From Eledone cirrhosa (taxonomy: Eukaryota), in contig OZ024741.1 of NCBI GenBank assembly GCA_964016885.1, forward strand, positions 331,514,001 to 331,578,000: a DNA stretch of 64,000 nucleotides, read 5' to 3'. The position numbers and the translations under genes were made by a program. Within the stretch, counting starts at the first letter, position 1. Each line of letters opens with the position of its first letter. Positions 10,899 to 58,089 of this stretch are shown here, one piece after another. The notes beneath the pieces were generated by a model. That model did no database searches, was not told the DNA's origin, and was given only the letters and a program-made list of their open reading frames with translations.

Positions 10899-10928
<30 letters not shown>

Positions 10929-10929
<1 letters not shown>

Positions 10930-11115
10930 ACAAAGGAATTGTGGTAAGGAACTAGATGGACCATAACGCACCAGAGTACTCAATACTTAGGGTAGTAGAG
11001 TGGGAAATAGGAAAAAGTATGACCCCGATGGCAGAGCTCAATCCATTTCGATGGCTATTTCTGGAAATAGCCATCGAAACGGCTTGAGCTCTGCCGTCGG
11101 GGTCATACTTTTTCC

Positions 11116-11118
<3 letters not shown>
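10929..11118 (-). mobile_element. Fold-back element family B (palindrome centred on hammerhead stem II plus tail), copy 1
   Basis: Palindrome 11007-11118; arm reads GAA-ACGGC TTGAGCTCT GCCGT-C-GGGGTC; tail 10929-11006; TA flanks; copies at 18231 and 34272. Confidence 0.75.
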
Positions 11119-11146
<28 letters not shown>

Positions 11147-12220: not shown

Positions 12221-12814
12221 GTTCTTTGGTAAAATAATGATGGAAAGTTATTTGATAAATATAAATACTTTAACCCTTTCCATTCCGTGTTTCTAATGAC
12301 AGGCACTGCTTATGATTTTTAATTTTGAAAAATTATGATGGAAAGAATCTAGATAAATCTAAATATTTTAAAACAAGCAGTTTAGTATCATAAAACCAGG
12401 GGTAGTTTCAGGCAGTTTATTGTATTAATAGGGTTAAAGAGAAAGTTTTAGTTTATATATGAGCATTTTGAAAATAGGCAGTTTTATGTCATAGAATCAG
12501 AAGTAGTTTCAGCTAGTAAGGTTAAGAAGAAAATTGTGCAGTTGAAGACAGCAAGTAGGTCAAAACAGTTGATTTGTGGCACAGTTTAACAGCTTGCAGC
12601 ATGCAACGAATTGTTTGTCACTTATCTCTGGTTTTAACAACAGAAGTTTTGATCAGATGTTGACAGAAAGTCATTTATTTTGAGGGATATTTGCAATTAT
12701 GTGTGTGTATATATGTGTGTATGTTTGTGAGTACACACGCACATACACATATAAATGAGTATGTCTATGTGTGTATAAATGTATATAATTTATATACATT
12801 CATATATATATCAT

Positions 12815-13197
12815 TGTATAAACGTTTGTATTTGTAAAGCCAAAACAATGCAGGTATGGACATAGAATATAAATACAAATGCAAAAGATATTGTTGACAA
12901 TTAGTCTTTTACCTTAAATTTATGTAAATGTCCTTAATTTTCGAGATAATATCTCTTCTTCAGAGGGAAGTAAAGCGGTTAAACCAGCGTTCTAAATAGC
13001 TGACTTGGCAAGCTATTTAGAACGCTGGTTTAACCGCTTTACTTCCCTCCGAAGAAGAGATATTATCTCGAAAATTAAGGACATTTAAATAAATTTAAGG
13101 TAAAAGACTAATTGTCAACAATATCTTTTGCATTTGCATTTATATTCTATGTCCATACCTGCATTGTTTTGGCTTTACAAATACAAATGTTTATACA
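12815..13197. mobile_element. Near-perfect ~187-bp-arm palindrome, family C, with a hammerhead in each arm
   Basis: Arms 12815-13001 and 13011-13197 with a 9-nt spacer; TA flanks. Confidence 0.85.
12932..12966 (-). ncRNA. Minimal type I hammerhead ribozyme
   Basis: CCT-CTGAAGA-A-GAGAT ATT ATCTC-GAA-AATT-A-AGG; palindromic stem III; the mirror copy at 13046-13080 has CCGAAGA. Confidence 0.75.
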
Positions 13198-13217
13198 TCA
13201 TTACATATATATATATA

Positions 13218-18212: not shown

Positions 18213-18230
18213 TATATATAAATATATATA

Positions 18231-18432
18231 AGGAAGGAATTGTGGTAAGGAACCAGATGGACCATAACGCACCAAAGTACTCAATACTTAGTGTAGTAGA
18301 GTGGGTAATAGGAAAAGGTAAGACCCCGACGGCAGAGCGCAAGCCGTTTCGACGGCTATTTCTGACAGCTATTTCTAGTCCAGAAATAGCCGTCGAAACG
18401 GCTTGAGCTCTGCCGTCGGGGTCATACCTTTT

Positions 18433-18436
<4 letters not shown>
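18231..18436 (-). mobile_element. Fold-back element family B, copy 2
   Basis: Homologous to 10929-11118; palindrome 18308-18436. Confidence 0.8.
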
Positions 18437-18480
<44 letters not shown>

Positions 18481-27304: not shown

Positions 27305-27520
27305 AAAAGGTAAACAGAAATAACAACACAATCAGTACAGTATATGGAAGGGATATATTAGGTTAACGCTTGATATAGCAGGAAGAGGGTCTTAACGTTT
27401 CAGACGCTAGTCTTTCATCAGAAGAAAGAATGAGAAATATAATAGGTTGAGGGGACGGGCGGGATGGAATTGGAAAAAAATGTCTTTAGATAAAAGGTCC
27501 ATTCATGTTGACATCTCTTG
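27305..27520 (-). mobile_element. Hammerhead element family F, copy 1
   Basis: Reverse-complement homolog of 31578-31798. Confidence 0.85.
27390..27425 (-). ncRNA. Minimal type I hammerhead ribozyme
   Basis: TCTT-CTGATGA-A-AGAC TAGC GTCT-GAA-ACGT-T-AAGA. Confidence 0.85.
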
Positions 27521-31577: not shown

Positions 31578-31798
31578 TAAGAGATGTCAACATGAATGGA
31601 CCTGTTATTTTTATCTAAAGACATTTTTTCCAATTCCATCCCGCCCATTCCCTCAATCTATCTTATTTCTCATTCTTTCTTCTGATGAAGGACTAACGTC
31701 CGAAACGTTAAGACCCTCTTCCTGCTATATCAAGCGTTAACCTAATATATACTTTCTATATATTGTGGTGATTGTGTTGTTATTTCTGTTTACCTTTT
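31578..31798 (+). mobile_element. Hammerhead element family F, copy 2
   Basis: Homolog of 27305-27520; ends ..TTTACCTTTT into TA; isolated 3' tip also at 47580-47608. Confidence 0.85.
31678..31713 (+). ncRNA. Minimal type I hammerhead ribozyme
   Basis: TCTT-CTGATGA-A-GGAC TAAC GTCC-GAA-ACGT-T-AAGA; stem II covaries with the copy at 27390. Confidence 0.85.
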
Positions 31799-33980: not shown

Positions 33981-34271
33981 GGCAGAGGACTGTGGTGGGA
34001 GAGGTGTGTGGGGGTTTGGGAGTTGGGCATTTGGGCATGTATAAGGGGTGGAGTGTTAGGACGTGGGAAGTAAGTGGAAGAGGAGGGAGGTGAAGCACGC
34101 TAGATGTATGCTTCAGCCTCATGGGAGGTGTATGGAAGAATGGGGTGGAGGTGAAGTTGGTGTATATTATATATATGCTCATGACAAGGCGGGTTTTCTG
34201 TACACATACACACACACATATATATATACATCCATCTATACATATACAGACACACACACACATATATATAT

Positions 34272-34437
34272 AACGAAGGAGGTGTGGTAAGGAACCAGAT
34301 GGACCATAACGCACCAGAGTACTCAATACATAGGGTAGTAGAGTGGGTACTAGGAAAATGTTTGACCCCGACAGCAGAGCTCAAGCCGTTTCGACGGCTA
34401 TTTCAGTCTAGAAATAGCCGTCGGAGTCAAACATTTT

Positions 34438-34441
<4 letters not shown>
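34272..34441 (-). mobile_element. Fold-back element family B, copy 3
   Basis: Homologous to 10929-11118; one arm has a deletion between GCCGTC direct repeats. Confidence 0.8.
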
Positions 34442-46560: not shown

Positions 46561-46761
46561 CAGGATTACTGTGAGGCAGGGTAGCTGTTGCTGGCCGTTC
46601 TCTGTGGCAATATGGCAATGCCTTCGCCATTTTGTCTGCGGAGCACAGCCAAATCACTGCTTAGACTAGGGTGTAGAATCTGTCCCTCTTCCTTTTTTTT
46701 TTGTTTCCTTTGAATATTGTTATTTCTTAATTGTAAACATTATTATATTATAGATATGTAG

Positions 46762-46800
<39 letters not shown>

Positions 46801-46803
<3 letters not shown>

Positions 46804-46998
46804 ACGTAGATACCCGATTTATGTTAGGAGTAACCTCAGTTAAAAAAGGTACTCAATATATTGGTAGAGTATAGACATCTTTATTATATACATAGATATT
46901 ACTTCTACAGGACTAGTACTGTTTCATTTGTATGAAACCATCCTGATTATTTCATACGAATGAAACAGTCCTGTAGAAGTATTTCTATAAATAAAATG
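46801..46998 (-). mobile_element. Fold-back element family H, copy 1 (palindrome centred on stem II)
   Basis: Palindrome ~46877-46998; arm GAA-ACAG TACTAGTC CTGT-A-GAAGT; tail with GTACTCAATA..GTAGAGT. Confidence 0.7.
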
Positions 46999-47450
46999 TG
47001 TGTGTGTGAGTGTGTGAATTATTTATTCTTTATGATTAACATTCATATAAAAAAAGAATTATATGTCTTAGAGAAGGGCCTCAAATTTCATATAGCTTAG
47101 AGCCTCATCAGGTGAAAGGCCAGCCCTGCACAAGATACCTGCAGCTAATGTGAATTCAGTTGTACAGTATTTTATCTCTCCACAGTAAATTTTTCACTTC
47201 TACAAATTTGAAATATTTTTCTCTGAGGCTAAAAGGGTTCATTGTGAAGAGGTGTGCATTTACAGAGTTTGTTTGACTATAAAAATATTGTTATTGTTAC
47301 AGTGTATGTATTTTCAGAGTTAATGGAAGTGAAAGGCTTATTTCAAACGTATTCAAAATGGAGGCATATTATCTTATATAGAAATAATTTGAGTGTACTT
47401 GAAATAACAACTCCCATTGCCAAACATTGAATTCAAAGGTTGTTTGTGGA

Positions 47451-47492
<42 letters not shown>

Positions 47493-47605
47493 ATGTATGT
47501 GTGTGAGTATGTATGTGTGTGTATGTATACATATGTTCATACATACAATATATACTGTATATATATATATATATATATGTTGTGTTGTTATTTCTGTTTA
47601 CCTTT

Positions 47606-47637
<32 letters not shown>

Positions 47638-48173
47638 CATACATGCATACACACACACACACACACATATATATATACACAAATAATAATATATCAGCTT
47701 GCCGATCACAAATAATTGTAAGGTATAAAAGAAGCTGTGGTTGAGGCAGCACAGTGTTAAATCTAACAGTGCCATAAATATAACTTGAAATCTGTGTTTT
47801 CTGAAAAATCAAATATGTGATGTCAGCTTTAATAATCTGTTATGTTGAAACTAAGTATTCTCTCCTGGTTACAGAGAAAGAAGAACTGTTTGCCTTGGTA
47901 TAATTAACAAACAGGCTGGCTATAGATAAAGGCTCCTTATCTAAACAACAAAAATATTTTTATATATATTGAAGAGGATTTCCTGCAGCAGACAATGTTG
48001 AATAGATAGATAACTTTGTAGATCTCATCATTGTGAATGTTTTTTAAAGAGAATTTGAAACTATTAGACATGGACAATTGCATCCATAATGGCTTTTGTC
48101 ATTGCAACATTTATAAAGAGTAAAATGTAAGAAAAAGATGGTTGGCATGTGTATGTGTGGAAGAAAGATCGCT

Positions 48174-48210
<37 letters not shown>

Positions 48211-48705
48211 AGCTGGCTGGTGTGCGCGTGTGGAGGAAAAATGGCTAGTGTGTACGTGTGTGTATGTGTGTATGTGTGGAGGAAGCTGGCTGGTCTGGTG
48301 TGTGGAGGAAAAATGGCTGGTGTGTGTATATGTGTAGGAAAAATGGTTGGTGTGTATATATGTGTAGGAATGATGGCTGGTGTGTGTGTGTAGGAAAGAA
48401 GGCTGGTGTGTATGTGTGTAGGAAAGATGACTGCTGTGTGTGTGTAGGAAGAAGGGCTGGGGGTTATATTGTCATAGTGATGAGAAGGAACATTGGAAAC
48501 AAAGCACCAATATATTCAACCAAATGCTATTAACATTTTTATCTTAAAAGTGTGCCTGGTTTATAGCTAAAAGAAAATAGGATAACATATGTCAGGATAT
48601 TCCCATTTTCATTACAATAAGATAATTGTGCATATATGTTTATAAACACGCACACAAACTAAATATATATATATATATGCATATATGTTTATAAACACGC
48701 ACACA

Positions 48706-48742
<37 letters not shown>

Positions 48743-48840
48743 TATATGTTTATAAACATGCACACAAACTCTCTCTCTCTCTATATATATATATATAGCC
48801 CATGCTAGCATGGAAGATAGACGTTAATCGATGATGAGGA

Positions 48841-48896
<56 letters not shown>

Positions 48897-49210
48897 ATGT
48901 AAAAGGTCCCCCACACATGTGTGTAACATACATTGTCGTCACCATCTTATGTCCCCTTGTCCATTCTTGCATGGGCTGGAAGGGTCTTTTTCAGCATAAC
49001 ATATCTCTACTCACTGCGTTCCTTCATCATTTCCTCTGCAAGCTTCAGCAATTTGGGATCAGCTGTCATCACCTCAATACAAGGCTTCCTTGGTATCTAC
49101 TCTACCATCCTTTCACATATAAATACATAAACACATAAACACATACACACACATATATTGATATAAATGTTAAACACTATATATATATATATACACATGC
49201 TTATATATAA

Positions 49211-49268
<58 letters not shown>

Positions 49269-49289
49269 TACATATATACATATATACAT

Positions 49290-49331
<42 letters not shown>

Positions 49332-49443
49332 GTATATATATGCATACATATATACATACATATATACATACATATATATATATACATATATATATATACA
49401 TATGCATATATATATACATATATATACGTACATATATATATAC

Positions 49444-49521
<78 letters not shown>

Positions 49522-50052
49522 GCACATATGTATATATCATCATTTAACATCTGTATATAAGTATATAAAAAGTAGATAAAACAAAAAAAAAAGCAACAAG
49601 AACAACAAAAATATTGAGCTAAATCGAAGCAGGGACTGTGAAATATCTTTCGACTTTCAAGATATTTATAAATACACAAGGAAATAAAATGAATATTTAT
49701 TGCAAGACTGAATGGCTTTGGAAAGTAAATTAATAGGAATAATTTGATGAAGTTTTCCTAGTTCCAATTATATTAATAGAGAATGGAGAATAACTGAGAT
49801 GATACAGTAATTTATGACAGAACAATCTCGTCTCTATGAGGGCTGTTGAAAGCATTGCTACTTTGACGAACAGCTCCGAATTAATTAGATTCATTTTATG
49901 ATGCTGGTATGCCATAATGTTGCATTTTGATTTGTTTGATGGTTGGTGCTGTATGGGGGTGGGTGGGTGGGGGAATAACGTTATATATCTTGCCTACTTC
50001 ACTCTCCCGCGCAAAACATATATTTATATATATATATATATCTACATACATA

Positions 50053-50112
<60 letters not shown>

Positions 50113-51121
50113 GGTTGATGGTGTATGGAAAATAACATTACGTCTTGCCTCCTTAAGTCCCCCAACAAAAACGTATATATATATTCATATATATATATAT
50201 ATATATATCTATATATATACATATATAGATATATACATATACAAAATATAGATATATAAAAAAAGTAAAAATGAAATATAATAAATGAAGAAATATAAAC
50301 TGGAAATGGAAGAAAAGAAAGAAAGTGGAGGAAATGAGACTAAATAAGTAAAAAAAGAAACAAAAAACAAAACAAAACATAAACAAAACGGAAAAGAAAA
50401 GATAAAGGGAAAGAACGAAGTTTCTTGCACAGAAGAGAAGAGACTTTTTTTTACTTCTTCCATTTTCTAATATCTGTAATATCTAATTGGTATATTCTCT
50501 CACATTCATTTTTCCTACATTGTTTACGCTGGAATCAAAACTAACCATGGAGATGCCCCAAGCAAATATTATTCAATGATGAGTCTTGTAGGTTTATTAG
50601 AAGGCGGGCTTCTCTGTTTGTAGTATGTGTATGTGTGGACATAGAACTTGGCATGTATATATTCATATGTCTATATATGTAAATGTGGTTGTATGCTTTT
50701 TTTGCATTTTATATATATATCGATATTTGCCTGTATGAGTGTTTGTTTCATATATTATATCATATATATATATATATATATATATATTGGTGTATGCATG
50801 TATTGCTTGGTCCATAGATATATAAATATTTATGTGCATATATATATATGCATGCATGCAGATATTAATATATATATATTCTTTCTAAATATGTATATAT
50901 TATAGTAATGTGTAGTTTGAAGATGAGTATATGTATATGCATGCATATATACACATATATATGCAAATGTATATTATCATTATTACTTCATTACTGTATA
51001 AATACAATAAAGAGATTTTGATGAATAGGAATATGCATATTAATATTTCTACACATAGTCACATATACATTTGTATTCTTGTTGTTTAATATGTTTGCAA
51101 TATGAATATATATATACATAC

Positions 51122-51174
<53 letters not shown>

Positions 51175-52444
51175 ACATTGCATCCTTATCTCTGTTGAGG
51201 CATATTTATATCAATACATATATACAATTAATTACACATCATCATTACTACATTGTAACTGTATAAAAGATGCTGTTGAATTAATAACATATGTATAGAT
51301 AACTGTAGAGATATTCCCCTATACACCTCTTTGTCACGCATTGGATAAGCTGTTACTGTCTGAGTCAGTTCCTATTTCAGTTACCCTCTCCTCCTACATG
51401 GGTTGTTAGGGACCATGTCTTGTCAATATATTCTAATTTTGGCATAGTTTCTATAGCTGGATTGCCTTCCTAACACCAACCACTATATAGAGTAAACTGG
51501 GTGTATGTTATTGTGTCAACAGCACTAGAAAGGTTGCGATGTCCTCAACAAGATGAAAGACCTGTCTCTACCCAACGATGTTGTCTGTTCAATTGTTGAC
51601 CATTTTGAAGAGTAAACTGGGTGCATTTCATCACGGCACCAACACTAGAAAGGTTGTATTGCCCATACATGGCAAGAAGAGCCATTCACATTCCATACCA
51701 TCACTGTTCTTTCAAGGTAAAATTACCCAAGTGTAATTTTCATTAGAAGTGGTGGTCTGGGGGTTAAAAGAGGAGAATGAGTATGAATATGAATGAGTAT
51801 GAATATGATATTAGGTGAGAGAGAGGGAAAAGGTTAGCTACATGTTAATTGTGGCTGGGAGGTTGTGTAATAGATGTTTCTTGCATACAGAGTAGGTGAC
51901 CTTCCTATAGCATAGAGTGATAGCTTAGTGAATATCACATAGAGCAATGTGGGGAGCTTTTAAAGCATGATGTAGTAGATGAGAGGTCTGATACTGTCAA
52001 CTACCACAGCCACTGCCTTAATGGCTATTTTGCCCTGGTTCCCACGTAATAAATTTGTCATAATGTGAAAGATAATCACATATCATCAAAAATTTCATGA
52101 AAAATAACTGCATTAACAATAACCACATTCCTTGATTTTAGGTGTTTTATACATATGATACTGAATACATGCAAATATCACATGTTTCTGCATGAGAACC
52201 AATGATGATATCAAGTGTTCTGCAAATGATAATTAAATATATAAATTTGATGCAACCAATAACATCTTGATGCTTAAATTAATTTTAATGTGGTTAAGAA
52301 TATATTTGCTTTCCTTCTCCATCACTTGAACAATAAACAATGTGAACCTTAAAATAAATGATTTAAGAAGCTTAAGCTTGGAATAAAATATATACACCCT
52401 ACATTCAGTGTTAACTATGATGTATGTATGTATACATATATATA

Positions 52445-52857
52445 TCATCATCATCATTTTACGTCCGCTTTTCCCTGCTTGCAAGGGGTCTTATTCAGCA
52501 CAGCATCTCTCCACTTGTCACAGTCCTTTGTCATCTCCTCTGGGAGCTTCAGCAATCTGAGGTCTGTTCTCACCACCTCCACCCATGTTTTTGTGGTCTA
52601 CCTCTACTGCGTCTTCGTTCTACTGGGATTTCTTGGCACTTTTTTACCCAGCGGTGATCTTCCATGTGCATCACATGTCCATACCATCGCAGTCTTCTCT
52701 TCCGCACACTACAACTTATCCCTCTTATACATAGTTTCTCTCTCAACTCATCCATGCTTGGTCACTCATGCACATTGACATTACACATCCAATGGAGCAT
52801 GCTTCATTTCTCTCCAGCGCCGTCGCATATCCTCTGCAGTTGGTGCCCATGTCTCAG

Positions 52858-52860
<3 letters not shown>
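52445..52860 (-). mobile_element. RTE-clade LINE 3' fragment
   Basis: ELREKL.IRGI...RRLRWYGHVMHME..GRP; (GAT)n tail. Confidence 0.85.
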
Positions 52861-52894
<34 letters not shown>

Positions 52895-52899
<5 letters not shown>

Positions 52900-53670
52900 T
52901 AAAATAACAGATTAAAGTTTAAGCAAAGAATCGCTGCTTTCACCCTTAACGGGATCTTCTGAAACTAACAAAGTCAATCTGTGAACGCAGAAGCGAATAT
53001 TTCAAAAAACGTTGCAACCGGAGGAAGACAGCAAGACGATACTTTGGTTTGTGAAAACGTTCCCTGGCAAAGAACGGGAAAAAACGAATATAATACGTCA
53101 TTAATAGGAGCGGTAAAAAACAATTACACGCAAAGACAGAACCACGTTTATGGTATAAAAGAAGTCGTAGACTAATGTTCTCTTAAGTGGTTCATAGAGA
53201 CGTTCTCTGGCAATGAACGGAAAAAACGAAGATAATACGTCATATGTGGAGCATGGAGAACAATTGCACGCAAAGACAAAACCACGTAAATGGTATAACT
53301 GAAGTCGTAGACTAAAATTCTAACTAGGAAACCGAATGATTCTCGCCTTCAGAGTTAAGAATAAAGTAAATAAAATACAGAGGTAATTGAAATTAAATAA
53401 ATACATACACGCATCCATATACGAACGAACCAAAGTATCGTCTTCCTGTCTTCCTCCGGTTGCAACGATTTTGAAATATTCACTTCTGCATTCACAGATT
53501 GACTTTGTTAGTTTCAGAAGATCCAGTTAAGGGTGAAAGCAGCGATTCTTTGCTTAAACTTTAATCTGTTATTTTAATAAATATTTGCTCTACGGTTCTT
53601 ATATATTTGATATATATTTATCCTTATCGAGCCCTCTTTGGATTTTAGTCTTCAAATTTATTATTATTAC
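52895..53670 (+). mobile_element. Fold-back hammerhead element family A, copy 2
   Basis: Homolog of 130-1022; hammerhead-like motifs at 52916-52966 (-) and 53510-53560 (+); internal ~120-bp duplication. Confidence 0.8.
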
Positions 53671-53702
53671 TATATATATATATATGTGTGTGTGTGTGTA
53701 TG

Positions 53703-53880
53703 TGAGTCTGGGGTTCACAGGTTAACCACAGTAATGTACTCAATACATTAGTAGAGTGTATACAACAAATTTAATGTAGAAATGACTTCTACAGGACTAG
53801 AACTGTTTCATTCAAAGGATTTCCTTCAAATGAAACAGTTCTAGTCATGTAGAAGCCATTTCTACATTCAATTTGTTATA
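53703..53880 (-). mobile_element. Fold-back element family H, copy 2
   Basis: Palindrome ~53760-53880 centred on ATTCAAAGGA TT TCCTTCAAAT; arm GAA-ACAG TTCTAGTC CTGT-A-GAAGTC. Confidence 0.75.
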
Positions 53881-54009
53881 TATAACGAAAGTTTTTGGTC
53901 GTATTGAACAGAACAAATTTTGTATTTTTGTTAATCGCTTGTTAAATGCAAGGACCCCATTCAATCATTACCTTCTATCTAGCTACCCAACACCCCTCCC
54001 TCCCACACC

Positions 54010-54208: not shown

Positions 54209-57200
54209 ATGCCAAAGATAAAGACAAATTCACCTCTTGGACGAGAATGCGAGCACTCCTCATTGTTTCGACCGCGGACGGCTAACATAACCCCATCGCC
54301 CCCCGCCCCCCACCGCCCCCAACCCCCAAACGCAATCCAAAACTTCAGAGTTGGTACCATAAATGTAGGCACACTAAAGGGTCGCGCTAACGAGGTTGTA
54401 GAAATGCTTGAACGTAAGGAGGTCGATGTTTGTTGTATTCAAGAGACCAGGTGGAGGGGTGGGTCTGCTAGGTTCATTGAGGGTAAAAAACGATGTTATA
54501 AGCTTTTCTGGGTGGGAAACGACGATGGGCTGGGTGGAGTAGGAATCATGGTAGCAGAAAAGTGGGCAGATAAGATAATAGACGTAAATAGAGTGAACGA
54601 CAGAATAATTAAAATACGACTTGTCCTCAATAGAACTACGGTGACAGTAATATCTGCGTACGCACCCCAATCCGGACTGCCCGGCACTATAAAAGACAGA
54701 TTCTATGAGACACTGATGCTAACTACCTCCCAAATATCCGACAGTGACTATATAATTATCGCAGGCGACCTAAATGGTCACGTTGGACAACATTGTGACG
54801 GCTACGACGAAATCCATGGAGGCTATGTGATGCAAATAACCTAACTATCTGTAACACTAACTTCAAAAAACGTGACAATCACCTGATCACCTATAGATCC
54901 GGGGAACACACAAGCCAGGTAGATTATATCCTTACCAGAAGACGTGACAGAGTGTCTGTTGTAAACACTAAATCCCTCCCCCATGAAGAATGCACCTCCC
55001 AACATAGACTGATAATTAGCGACCTCATAGTCAGGACGAGACGTACTCGACAGCAGAAGAGGACTATCCTCAGGAGAAAAATATGGAAGCTAAAGGACCC
55101 CACAGCCAGGAATAAATTTCAAAGCATATTACTTGATGCTTTCGACAGTAAGGAAGAACATTTAGAGTCGGACAATATAGAGGGAGAGTGGGAATTTCTG
55201 AAAGCAAACCTGCTGTTGGCGACAGACGAAGTCTGTGGCTGGAGCAGGCCTGTAGGCAGGAGGAGAGTAACATGGTGGTGGAACAGTAAGGTGGAGGGGT
55301 CAATTAAGGCCAAAAAGCAGGCTTGGAAAGTATGGCGGGATGGGGGAAGTAGAGAAGACTATCAAGTGGCCAGGAGGGAAGCTAGGAGACAAGTGTACTT
55401 AGCAAGAAGGGAAGCTGAGGAAAGAAAGTTCAAGCATGTTCTACAACGCGATGACCAAAAACGTGAGGTGTTCAGGATTGCTAGGCAATGCGTCAAGGAA
55501 AACCGTGATATTGTCGGGGAGAAGTGTGTACTAAACGACGATGGCACACTTGCCATCACCAACGCTGATAAGAAGGTAGCTTGGAAGTGTCACTATGAAA
55601 GGCTACTAAATGAGGAGAATAAATGGGAGAAAGACAGTCTCCCCCATATCGACCCAATAGAGGGACCAGCAGTGTTAGTCGAGGGGAGTATAATAAGTAA
55701 GGCAATCAAGGATATGAAGACGGGTAAGGCGGCTGGGCCTTCGGAAATAGTTGCTGAGATGCTGAAGGCATCTGGCACGGTGGGACACACCATGGTCACC
55801 CGCATAGTTAACCAAGTCGTACAGAATGGGGTTGTTCCGAAGGACTGGCATAGCAGCATCATCGTTAACTGTTATAAGGGTAAAGGAGACGCCCTAGATA
55901 GGAGTAACTATAGAGGCATTAAATTAATCGACCAGGTCATGAAGGTCACGGAAAAAGTAATAGCGCAACTAATCAGAGAGAGAATTGACCTAGATGAAAT
56001 GCAGTTCGGGTTTGTGTCAGGCAAAAGTACCACAGACGCTCTTTTCATAGTACGACAACTACAGGAGAAGTACCTAGCTAAAGGTAAACCCCTCCACTTA
56101 GCTTTTGTCGACTTGGAGAAAGCCTTCGACAGAGTCCCCCGCTCCATTATCTGGTGGGCTCTTAGAAAACTAGGCGTTGACGAATGGCTTGTGAGGGCTA
56201 TACAAGCCATGTATAAAGAAACAGTCAGCAAGGTTAGAATTAACAACGAATATAGTGAAGAGTTTAGCGTAAAAGTTGGCGTCCATCAGGGCTCTGTTCT
56301 CAGCCCACTACTATTTATTATTGCCCTTCAGGCTATAACAGAGGAGTTCAAGACAGGCTGCCCATGGGAACTCCTATACGCAGACGACCTGACACTCATA
56401 GCGGAATCAATGGCCGAGCTAGAGAAGAAATTCCAAACATGGAAGCACGGCCTAGAGTCAAAAGGACTTAAAATTAACCTGGCTAAGACCAAAGTACTAG
56501 TTTGTAGGAAAGAAAACAAGGCGGCGGTCCCTTCTGGGAAATGGTCGTGCTCGGTGTGTAGTAAAGGCGTAGGTAGAAACTCCATTTTATGTCCTAAATG
56601 CAAAGTATGGGTGCATAAAAGATGTAGTGGGATCCCAGGTAAGCTAACTAAGAACAGATTTTACATGTGGCCGGTGCTCTGGTGCAATAAGTAGCAGCAA
56701 GTGCCCACAAAATACTAGCTCTTTCAATTGCGCAGAGGGTTCTATAGAAATAGTGGACAGCTTCCGTTACCTGGGCGATAAAATCAGCAGTGGGGGAGGG
56801 TGCTCTGAAAGTACTGTAGCTAGAGTCAGAACTGGTTGGAAAAAGTTCAGAGAGCTTATACCACTATTAGCTGCTAAAGGGTTCTCCCTAAAAATGAAAG
56901 GCAGGTTGTACGATGCCTGCATACGAACAGCAATGCTGCATGGCAGTGAGACCTGGGCATTGTGTGCAGAGGATATACGCAGACTAGAGAGGAACGAAGC
57001 TTGCATGCTCCGCTGGATGTGTAACAGTAATATACGTGAACGGCAAAGCATAAACGAACTAAGGAAAAAATTAGAGATAAGAGGGATCAGATGTTGTTTA
57101 CTCGAGAGAAGGCTACGTTGGTATGGACACGTGATGCGCATGAAAGTCGATAGCTGTATAACAAAGTGCAGGGCAATAAAGATAGACGGTAGTCACGGAA

Positions 57201-57331
57201 TAGGCAGACCTAGAAAAACCTGGGACGAGCTGATAAACTCCGACATCACACACTTACACCTCTCCAAGACAATGTCACTGGACCGAGACCTTTGGCGGTA
57301 CTCAGTAACAGAGAAGACCCGCCTTACCTAA
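54209..57331 (+). pseudogene. APE-RT ORF with two lesions (deletion ~54828, frameshift ~56655)
   Basis: GTINVGTL, CCIQETRW, SAYAP, GDLNGHVG, DYIL, FVDLEKAFD, VHQGSVLSP, YADD, FRYLG, RLRWYGHV, GRPRKTW. Confidence 0.9.
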
Positions 57332-57726: not shown

Positions 57727-57792
<66 letters not shown>

Positions 57793-58089
57793 AACAAATT
57801 TAATGTAGAAATGGCTTCAACATGACTATTTACACACACACACACACATATGTAACATCCTCATCAATTTTGCATCAACTTTGTCATACTGGCATGGGTT
57901 GTATAGGTCTTTTGAAGTCATATGAATGTTTTATAGCTAAAGGCACCAAATGCCCTTGTTTATGTTAACACTTTTAATTGTTTCATACAACATACATGAT
58001 GTACCTATTTTAAGTCAGATACACACACCATTTATGTTTATAATCATATATATCTCTGTATGTAATTTATACATAGAGTATATATATAT

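Follow-up and report, generated by a model that had tools for sequence, protein, structure and literature searches.

We describe family H, a family of short inverted repeats carrying hammerhead ribozyme sequence, in a stretch of 64,000 nucleotides (nt) of the genome of Eledone cirrhosa (assembly GCA_964016885.1, contig OZ024741.1, positions 331,514,001 to 331,578,000 of the forward strand; hereafter the window). The genome measures 3.0 Gb and is rich in microsatellites. We discuss the layout of the copies in the window, the Penelope-like element (PLE) to which their arms belong, the head-to-head joins of their relatives, and the manner in which such joins may arise. Positions are counted from the first nucleotide of the window.

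Structure of the window copies

Copies 1 (46801-46998) and 2 (53703-53882) are homologous, agreeing at 78% over 83 nt, and each is an inverted repeat. Their hairpins are far more stable than those of shuffled sequences (z -10.7 for copy 1 and -15.8 for copy 2, with 0 of 200 shuffles reaching either), and the central sequences cited in a preliminary description of this DNA are present in both; the copies and their hairpins are thereby confirmed as real. The parts of the copies, together with a third and partial one, are as follows; pLTR denotes the terminal repeat of the parent element, and names in L with a number denote loci elsewhere in the genome.

46744 to 46799, no strand: (TA)n target tract next to the tail of copy 1, read from the sequence
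46801 to 46882, minus strand: one-sided tail of copy 1, a pLTR extension alignable with the tail of the L190 and L114 pLTRs; its border with the arm is approximate
46883 to 46942, minus strand: left arm of copy 1, a pLTR copy with the hammerhead 3' half intact
46942 to 46997, plus strand: right arm of copy 1, placed by alignment, with its short end in TATA-like sequence
53661 to 53702, no strand: (TA)n/(TG)n tract next to the tail of copy 2, with an approximate start
53703 to 53758, minus strand: one-sided tail of copy 2, placed by alignment; boundary approximate
53759 to 53819, minus strand: left arm of copy 2, hammerhead 3' half intact, truncated within stem II
53818 to 53882, plus strand: right arm of copy 2, with a G8-A9 remnant and one change in stem III
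57786 to 57828, minus strand: third family H copy, partial (from 3' of loop III to the short end), adjoining (TA)n

The left arm of copy 1 holds GAAA at 46925-46922, stem III with its loop, a GUA site between 46906 and 46905, and a stem II with loop ATAC; its core is trimmed to a GATGG remnant. The right arm, from which the tail is missing, holds CTGATTA at 46943-46949, the 5' hammerhead core with G8 changed, followed by stem II (TTC-ATAC-GAA, 46951-46960), GAAA at 46962-46965, a loop III reduced by a 6-nt deletion to 46969-46970, and a GUA site after 46975. In copy 2 the two arms overlap by 2 nt (53818-53819), and the GA at this point is all that is left of the core. Its left arm has GAAA at 53809-53806 and a GUA site between 53790 and 53789; its right arm has stem II with loop CTTC at 53821-53830, GAAA at 53832-53835 and a GUA site after 53851. 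The preliminary description had read GAA-ACAG(8 nt)CTGT-A-GAAGT in both copies; this 3' motif is intact on the minus strand of both left arms and on the plus strand of neither, where copy 1 shows the loop III deletion and copy 2 reads ATGT and GAAGC.

A complete type I hammerhead (CUGANGA, GAAA and NUH in order, with stems I-III) is missing from both window copies, and an Rfam scan of the window gave no hammerhead family among the best 150 of 416 rows, these rows being noise from microsatellites matched to miRNAs. The copies in the window are old insertion products whose arms were trimmed further at the join, and neither arm therefore holds a working ribozyme. As judged from their sequence they are decayed, and cleavage is not expected; a transcript across either copy would fold into one long hairpin.

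Abundance and the hammerhead of family H

A search of the genome DNA with copy 1 gave 2,912 first-look candidates, 40 of which were scored. The 28-nt arm motif has 9,426 exact matches in the genome, and its control has 0. An alignment of 30 relatives holds a whole type I hammerhead in each arm, with the centre of the repeat at or upstream of the core, in agreement with the hammerhead motif that the preliminary description had seen. It had also proposed to look for the 5' hammerhead half in full-length relatives, whose lack of it would have counted as a refutation. This half is present: the ACTTC-type pattern of stem I, core, stem II and GAAAC has 381 genome matches with at most 1 mismatch, and the version belonging to the subfamily of copy 1 has 246 exact matches (control 0 for each). 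The expected ACTTC-core sequence is thus found in relatives, while the subfamily of copy 1 itself has a GACATTC-type 5' strand of stem I with a bulged A. In a separate observation, a single family H copy has been multiplied, flanks included, as part of a larger repeated segment at L193 and about 14 loci like it on contig C1.

We tallied hammerhead features over 142 distinct intact-core arms from all loci gathered, a set that is not unbiased, and counted stem changes by subfamily. Stem II is TTC/GAA in 122 of these arms and loop II takes the form of many different tetramers; the 10.1/11.1 pair that closes stem II is U.U in 135, not purine-pyrimidine, and the cleavage triplet ends in UA in 139. 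The two strands of stem I vary in concert between subfamilies (AGCTTC/GAAGCT, GGCTTC/GAAGCC, GACATTC/GAAGTC). In folding predictions, the hammerhead lies within about 1 kcal/mol of the minimum free energy in 4 of the 9 arms folded; a single isolated arm is no more stable than its shuffles (z 0.56).

The parent element

In relatives without an inverted arm the upstream part passes CCAAT and TATA motifs before it enters an internal TG/TA microsatellite. At L190 the pLTR and tail pass into an open reading frame (ORF) without a TA break. Its motifs, read by eye from the translations, are RWR, DKT, a CxCx5C linker, GIY-YIG, CxxC and CxH. The frame, the only near-full one seen, is broken; its GIY-YIG part matches Pfam PF01541 at E 0.0048, under the cutoff, and its reverse transcriptase (RT) part reaches 0.96-0.97 against HTH_animal/RVT_1 clusters. 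A Pfam search of the L190 ORF found no RT family, and a PDB sequence search with the RT piece returned 0 matches. Inverted pieces of an L190-type ORF are joined directly to the pLTR at L098 (94%) and L107 (92%), a 77% ORF piece is joined directly to the pLTR of another subfamily at L207, and the 3' untranslated region of the ORF lies upstream of the pLTR microsatellite at L157. The pLTRs of the window copies' ATAC and CTTC subfamilies align to the ORF-linked pLTR. In an examination of target-site duplication, insertion ends were seen to merge into TA microsatellites. These sequence comparisons show that the arms are ends of a pLTR and that, in sister subfamilies, this pLTR belongs to an endonuclease-bearing (EN+) PLE with an RT and GIY-YIG ORF.

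Several neighbours were considered as parts of family H and set aside. A GIY-YIG piece upstream of L115/L116 and a Neptune-like ORF in L121 are each set apart by TA tracts and are unrelated insertions; the centre of a 1-kb inverted repeat at L123 and the unit upstream of L158 are other tandem elements, of 545 nt and about 575 nt. The inverted repeat at L123 (480-2940, arms of about 1 kb) links a family H pLTR to the different 545-nt element, which suggests that a read-through composite was copied. Hydra-type ORF fragments of other PLE families are nested at TA tracts in L190 (1-4000 and 8900-10000), L105 and L036.

Head-to-head joins

For a census of joins we took 90 loci from the first listed matches of the 28-mer, chosen without upstream bias. 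After 2 loci that were the second arm of an insertion already counted, 16 segmental duplicates and 1 further duplicate had been removed, 71 loci were left; L226 and L242, where the second motif comes from a neighbouring or remote copy, were left out of the head-to-head count. A head-to-head arm is present in 43 of the 71 loci; among the remaining 28, some contain inverted arms that are partly deleted and that the motif missed.

The spacer, measured between the two GAAUG motifs, ranges from 0 to 467 nt among the 43 pairs, with a mode at 35-38 nt (19 of 43) in which two cores face apart. It is 8 nt or less, as a join centred on stem II would have it, in a single pair (L248, spacer 0). An intact CTGANGA is retained in at least one arm of 34 pairs. 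Truncation is focused: 38 of 86 arms stop 4-6 nt upstream of core position C3. Of 22 long arms, 16 have TATAAAT at a distance of 35 nt upstream of C3; in L315, of copy 1's subfamily, the distance is 37 nt. A transcription start usually lies about 30 nt below a TATA motif. With TATAAAT some 35-37 nt before C3, the ends of the short arms coincide with the expected start of the RNA.

The tail is confined to one arm in 40 of the 43 pairs, occurs on both in 0 and on neither in 3 (Fisher p 2e-9); both window copies are likewise one-sided. Loop II is the same in both arms in 26 of 36 comparisons (shuffle mean 4.6, maximum 13), and the arms of one insertion always come from one subfamily. The arm with the tail reaches further 5' than its partner in 15 pairs, less far in 17, and to within 2 nt of it in 8. 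Identical joins occur in both polarities (L220/L260 against L259; L238 against L234). Within-copy homogenisation of the arms was looked for in the census pairs and none was seen. At L211, L249, L268 and L281 extra G bases directly precede the arm on its 5' side, at a place occupied by CA in the long parent; these few cases may reflect copying of the cap or a terminal addition.

Proposed origin and its alternatives

We consider it probable that each hairpin consists of two 5'-truncated pLTR copies placed head-to-head in a TA microsatellite, likely by two events of reverse transcription that ran from opposite-strand nicks to the 5' end of the RNA. A TATA promoter in the pLTR would start the RNA just before the hammerhead; the enzyme would start complementary DNA (cDNA) at two internal sites, one giving the short end and the other the tail end, as an anole element does in vitro. 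Both cDNAs would be copied onto opposite nicks as far as the RNA start, and their ends would anneal by 1-3 nt of microhomology with the loss of a few bases. More tentatively, with somewhat less than even confidence, we propose that PLE enzymes in general may use a single capped RNA as template twice, starting from two internal sites, extending both cut strands and running up to the cap, and join the cDNAs. The thousands of joins would then map the promoter start and record two-primer integration, and the U.U-closed variant of stem II may cleave only as a dimer or with protein.

Several points weigh against this proposal. The sample covers the first ~52 Mb of one contig, requires an exact 28-mer, and leans to younger copies. 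The ORF links come from the subfamilies with TCAC and CTCC loops, not from the ATAC and CTTC subfamilies of the window copies. The RNA start is deduced from TATA spacing and DNA ends only; most of the arms with the TATA spacing belong to one subfamily, and a CAG that could serve as a splice acceptor precedes the join. Two arms of one insertion are no closer to each other than to arms with the same loop in other copies (3.6 against 3.9 differences, p 0.49), and an origin of both arms from the same RNA molecule is not shown. In addition, deletions at the tip of the palindrome after insertion could randomise which arm is longer and so weaken the 15:17 test.

The nearest alternative keeps the same element and RNA start and supposes that one cDNA snaps back at its 3' end, or that an antisense RNA primes itself, and copies itself, with the endonuclease trimming the second arm at the short end. 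The shared subfamily of the two arms would follow from such self-copying, a mini-hairpin can form at frequent joins such as GG-AAG-CC, and self-priming from palindromic junctions has been proposed for rotifer PLEs in PMC3846280. A self-copy, however, cannot hold 5' bases that are missing from the tail arm, yet in 17 of the 32 clear cases it is the tail arm that is shorter; the shared joins in both polarities and large asymmetric cases such as L115 also argue against it, and we regard it as unlikely. Amplification of a fixed non-autonomous palindrome, similar to a miniature inverted-repeat transposable element (MITE) or to a master short interspersed element, would suit the very high copy number, the short length, the TA flanks and the inverted arms. 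Yet the joins and their 0-467-nt spacers vary from copy to copy, 28 of 71 loci are without a matching inverted arm, the arms are the pLTR of an ORF-bearing element, and the outer ends are unequal. Where a MITE is a fixed unit with equal terminal inverted repeats, family H has variable joins, unequal ends and solo arms, and amplification as a unit is very improbable.

Least credible of all is the view taken in the preliminary description, that reverse transcription folds back at stem II of the hammerhead and that stem II, with covarying strands, forms the central hairpin. One arm of copy 2 has been truncated as far as stem II, with a spacer of 14-15 nt, L248 has no spacer, and most copies seen of the neighbouring family B units are without a recognisable core; each of these fits a fold-back at stem II. 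The single short spacer among 43 pairs refutes it as a rule for the family, as do the intact cores of the 34 pairs, and the centre of copy 1 holds the CTGATTA core, with the real stem II beside it. The replacement of the hairpin sequence with pairing retained had been taken for covariation of stem II, but stem II is nearly invariant and it is loop II that varies. Pairing is kept whatever the sequence because the arms are inverted duplicates that pair arm to arm. The hairpins of copies 1 and 2 differ in the unpaired loop II (ATAC against CTTC) and in truncation.

Comparison with known systems

The structure itself is already known as a published product of PLE insertion. In the parts of PMC8557442 and PMC3846280 on which we draw, an inverted 5'-truncated copy and a one-sided tail are typical of EN+ PLE insertions, and an insertion bias towards (TA)n is reported. 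A close match is Pen2a_Av of Adineta, as given in part of PMC3846280 and the Fig. 2 legend of PMC8557442. It shares head-to-head pLTRs with a tail on one end only, a TATA/Inr-like pLTR motif, microhomology at the joins and heavy 5' truncation. Family H differs in that its insertions are mostly just the last 60-190 nt, its tail measures about 80 nt instead of 30-40, its joins cluster just 5' of the hammerhead, and it counts no fewer than 9,400 exact occurrences of the motif.

Family H shows the features that section 11 of PMC8557442 gives as diagnostic of the Hydra clade of C-terminal EN+ PLEs: RW(K/R), DKT in place of DKG, the CxCx5C linker, a C-terminal GIY-YIG with CxxC/CxH around E and N and no CCHH, a canonical pLTR hammerhead, and (TA)n insertion. 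The assignment to the clade is by motifs, and the family H pLTR departs from the clade in its long internal TG/TA microsatellite. With the metazoan PLE hammerheads described in sections of PMC4209133, family H has in common a type I core in the pLTR, a palindromic loop III (CTAG), many scattered single motifs and close opposite-strand pairs, which in Schistosoma lie 100-700 bp apart. In contrast to these, its stem II is 3 bp long and U.U-closed (135 of 142 arms) instead of closed by G10.1-C11.1, and its stem III consists of 4 bp capped by a loop of 8 nt.

Poseidon of Anolis provides the biochemical parallel. In the part of PMC11167929 on which we draw, the purified protein cuts and extends both strands of AT-rich DNA in vitro, its cDNA starts at two internal sites that bound the tail, and a change of G8 abolishes the hammerhead. 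Family H shares with it AT-rich targets and an ORF that begins just downstream of the hammerhead, and would share the two internal starts that define a tail and the cutting and extension of both strands; Poseidon belongs to a different clade, and head-to-head joins are not addressed in that part of the paper. Non-LTR retrozymes, as portrayed in portions of bioRxiv 10.64898/2026.07.22.740005 and PMC7229834, are likewise non-coding, PLE-derived and equipped with a type I hammerhead, but form head-to-tail tandem units, whereas the window copies and 43 of 71 loci are head-to-head stubs.

What family H adds is a Hydra-type parent, counts of join position and polarity, and a U.U-closed stem II. It provides a large natural data set on how PLEs make inverted ends, a step that the papers drawn on here call unresolved. 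Join positions, the strict confinement of the tail to one arm and symmetric polarity speak more for two cDNAs that stop at the RNA start than for a self-primed hairpin. In addition, a Hydra-type family is seen to exist in thousands of copies within a single animal genome. Literature searches, with most subscription journals outside their coverage, showed among the papers listed none on clustering of PLE joins at the transcription start.

Other hammerhead-like units in the window

Family B forms fold-back units at 10915-11135, 18230-18440 and 34270-34440 that carry a hammerhead 3' half (GAAAC...GUC site). Their joins vary over 4-38 nt, and their one-sided tail has a short motif in common with that of family H. 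A search for a 5' core in family B gave 36 heterogeneous pattern matches, many of them at joins, and no consistent core.

A palindrome at 12795-13217 has 207-nt arms, each with a CTGAAGA/CCGAAGA core, stem II, GAAA and a minimal stem III; it is likely another head-to-head pLTR pair. A minimal hammerhead that ends in (TA)n, with a stem II of 4 bp and hardly any stem III, occurs twice, at 31682 on the plus strand and at 27421 on the minus strand, and is typical of the minimal PLE motif. Just downstream of copy 2, at 54341-57330, lies a broken long interspersed element (LINE) with AP endonuclease and RT frames.

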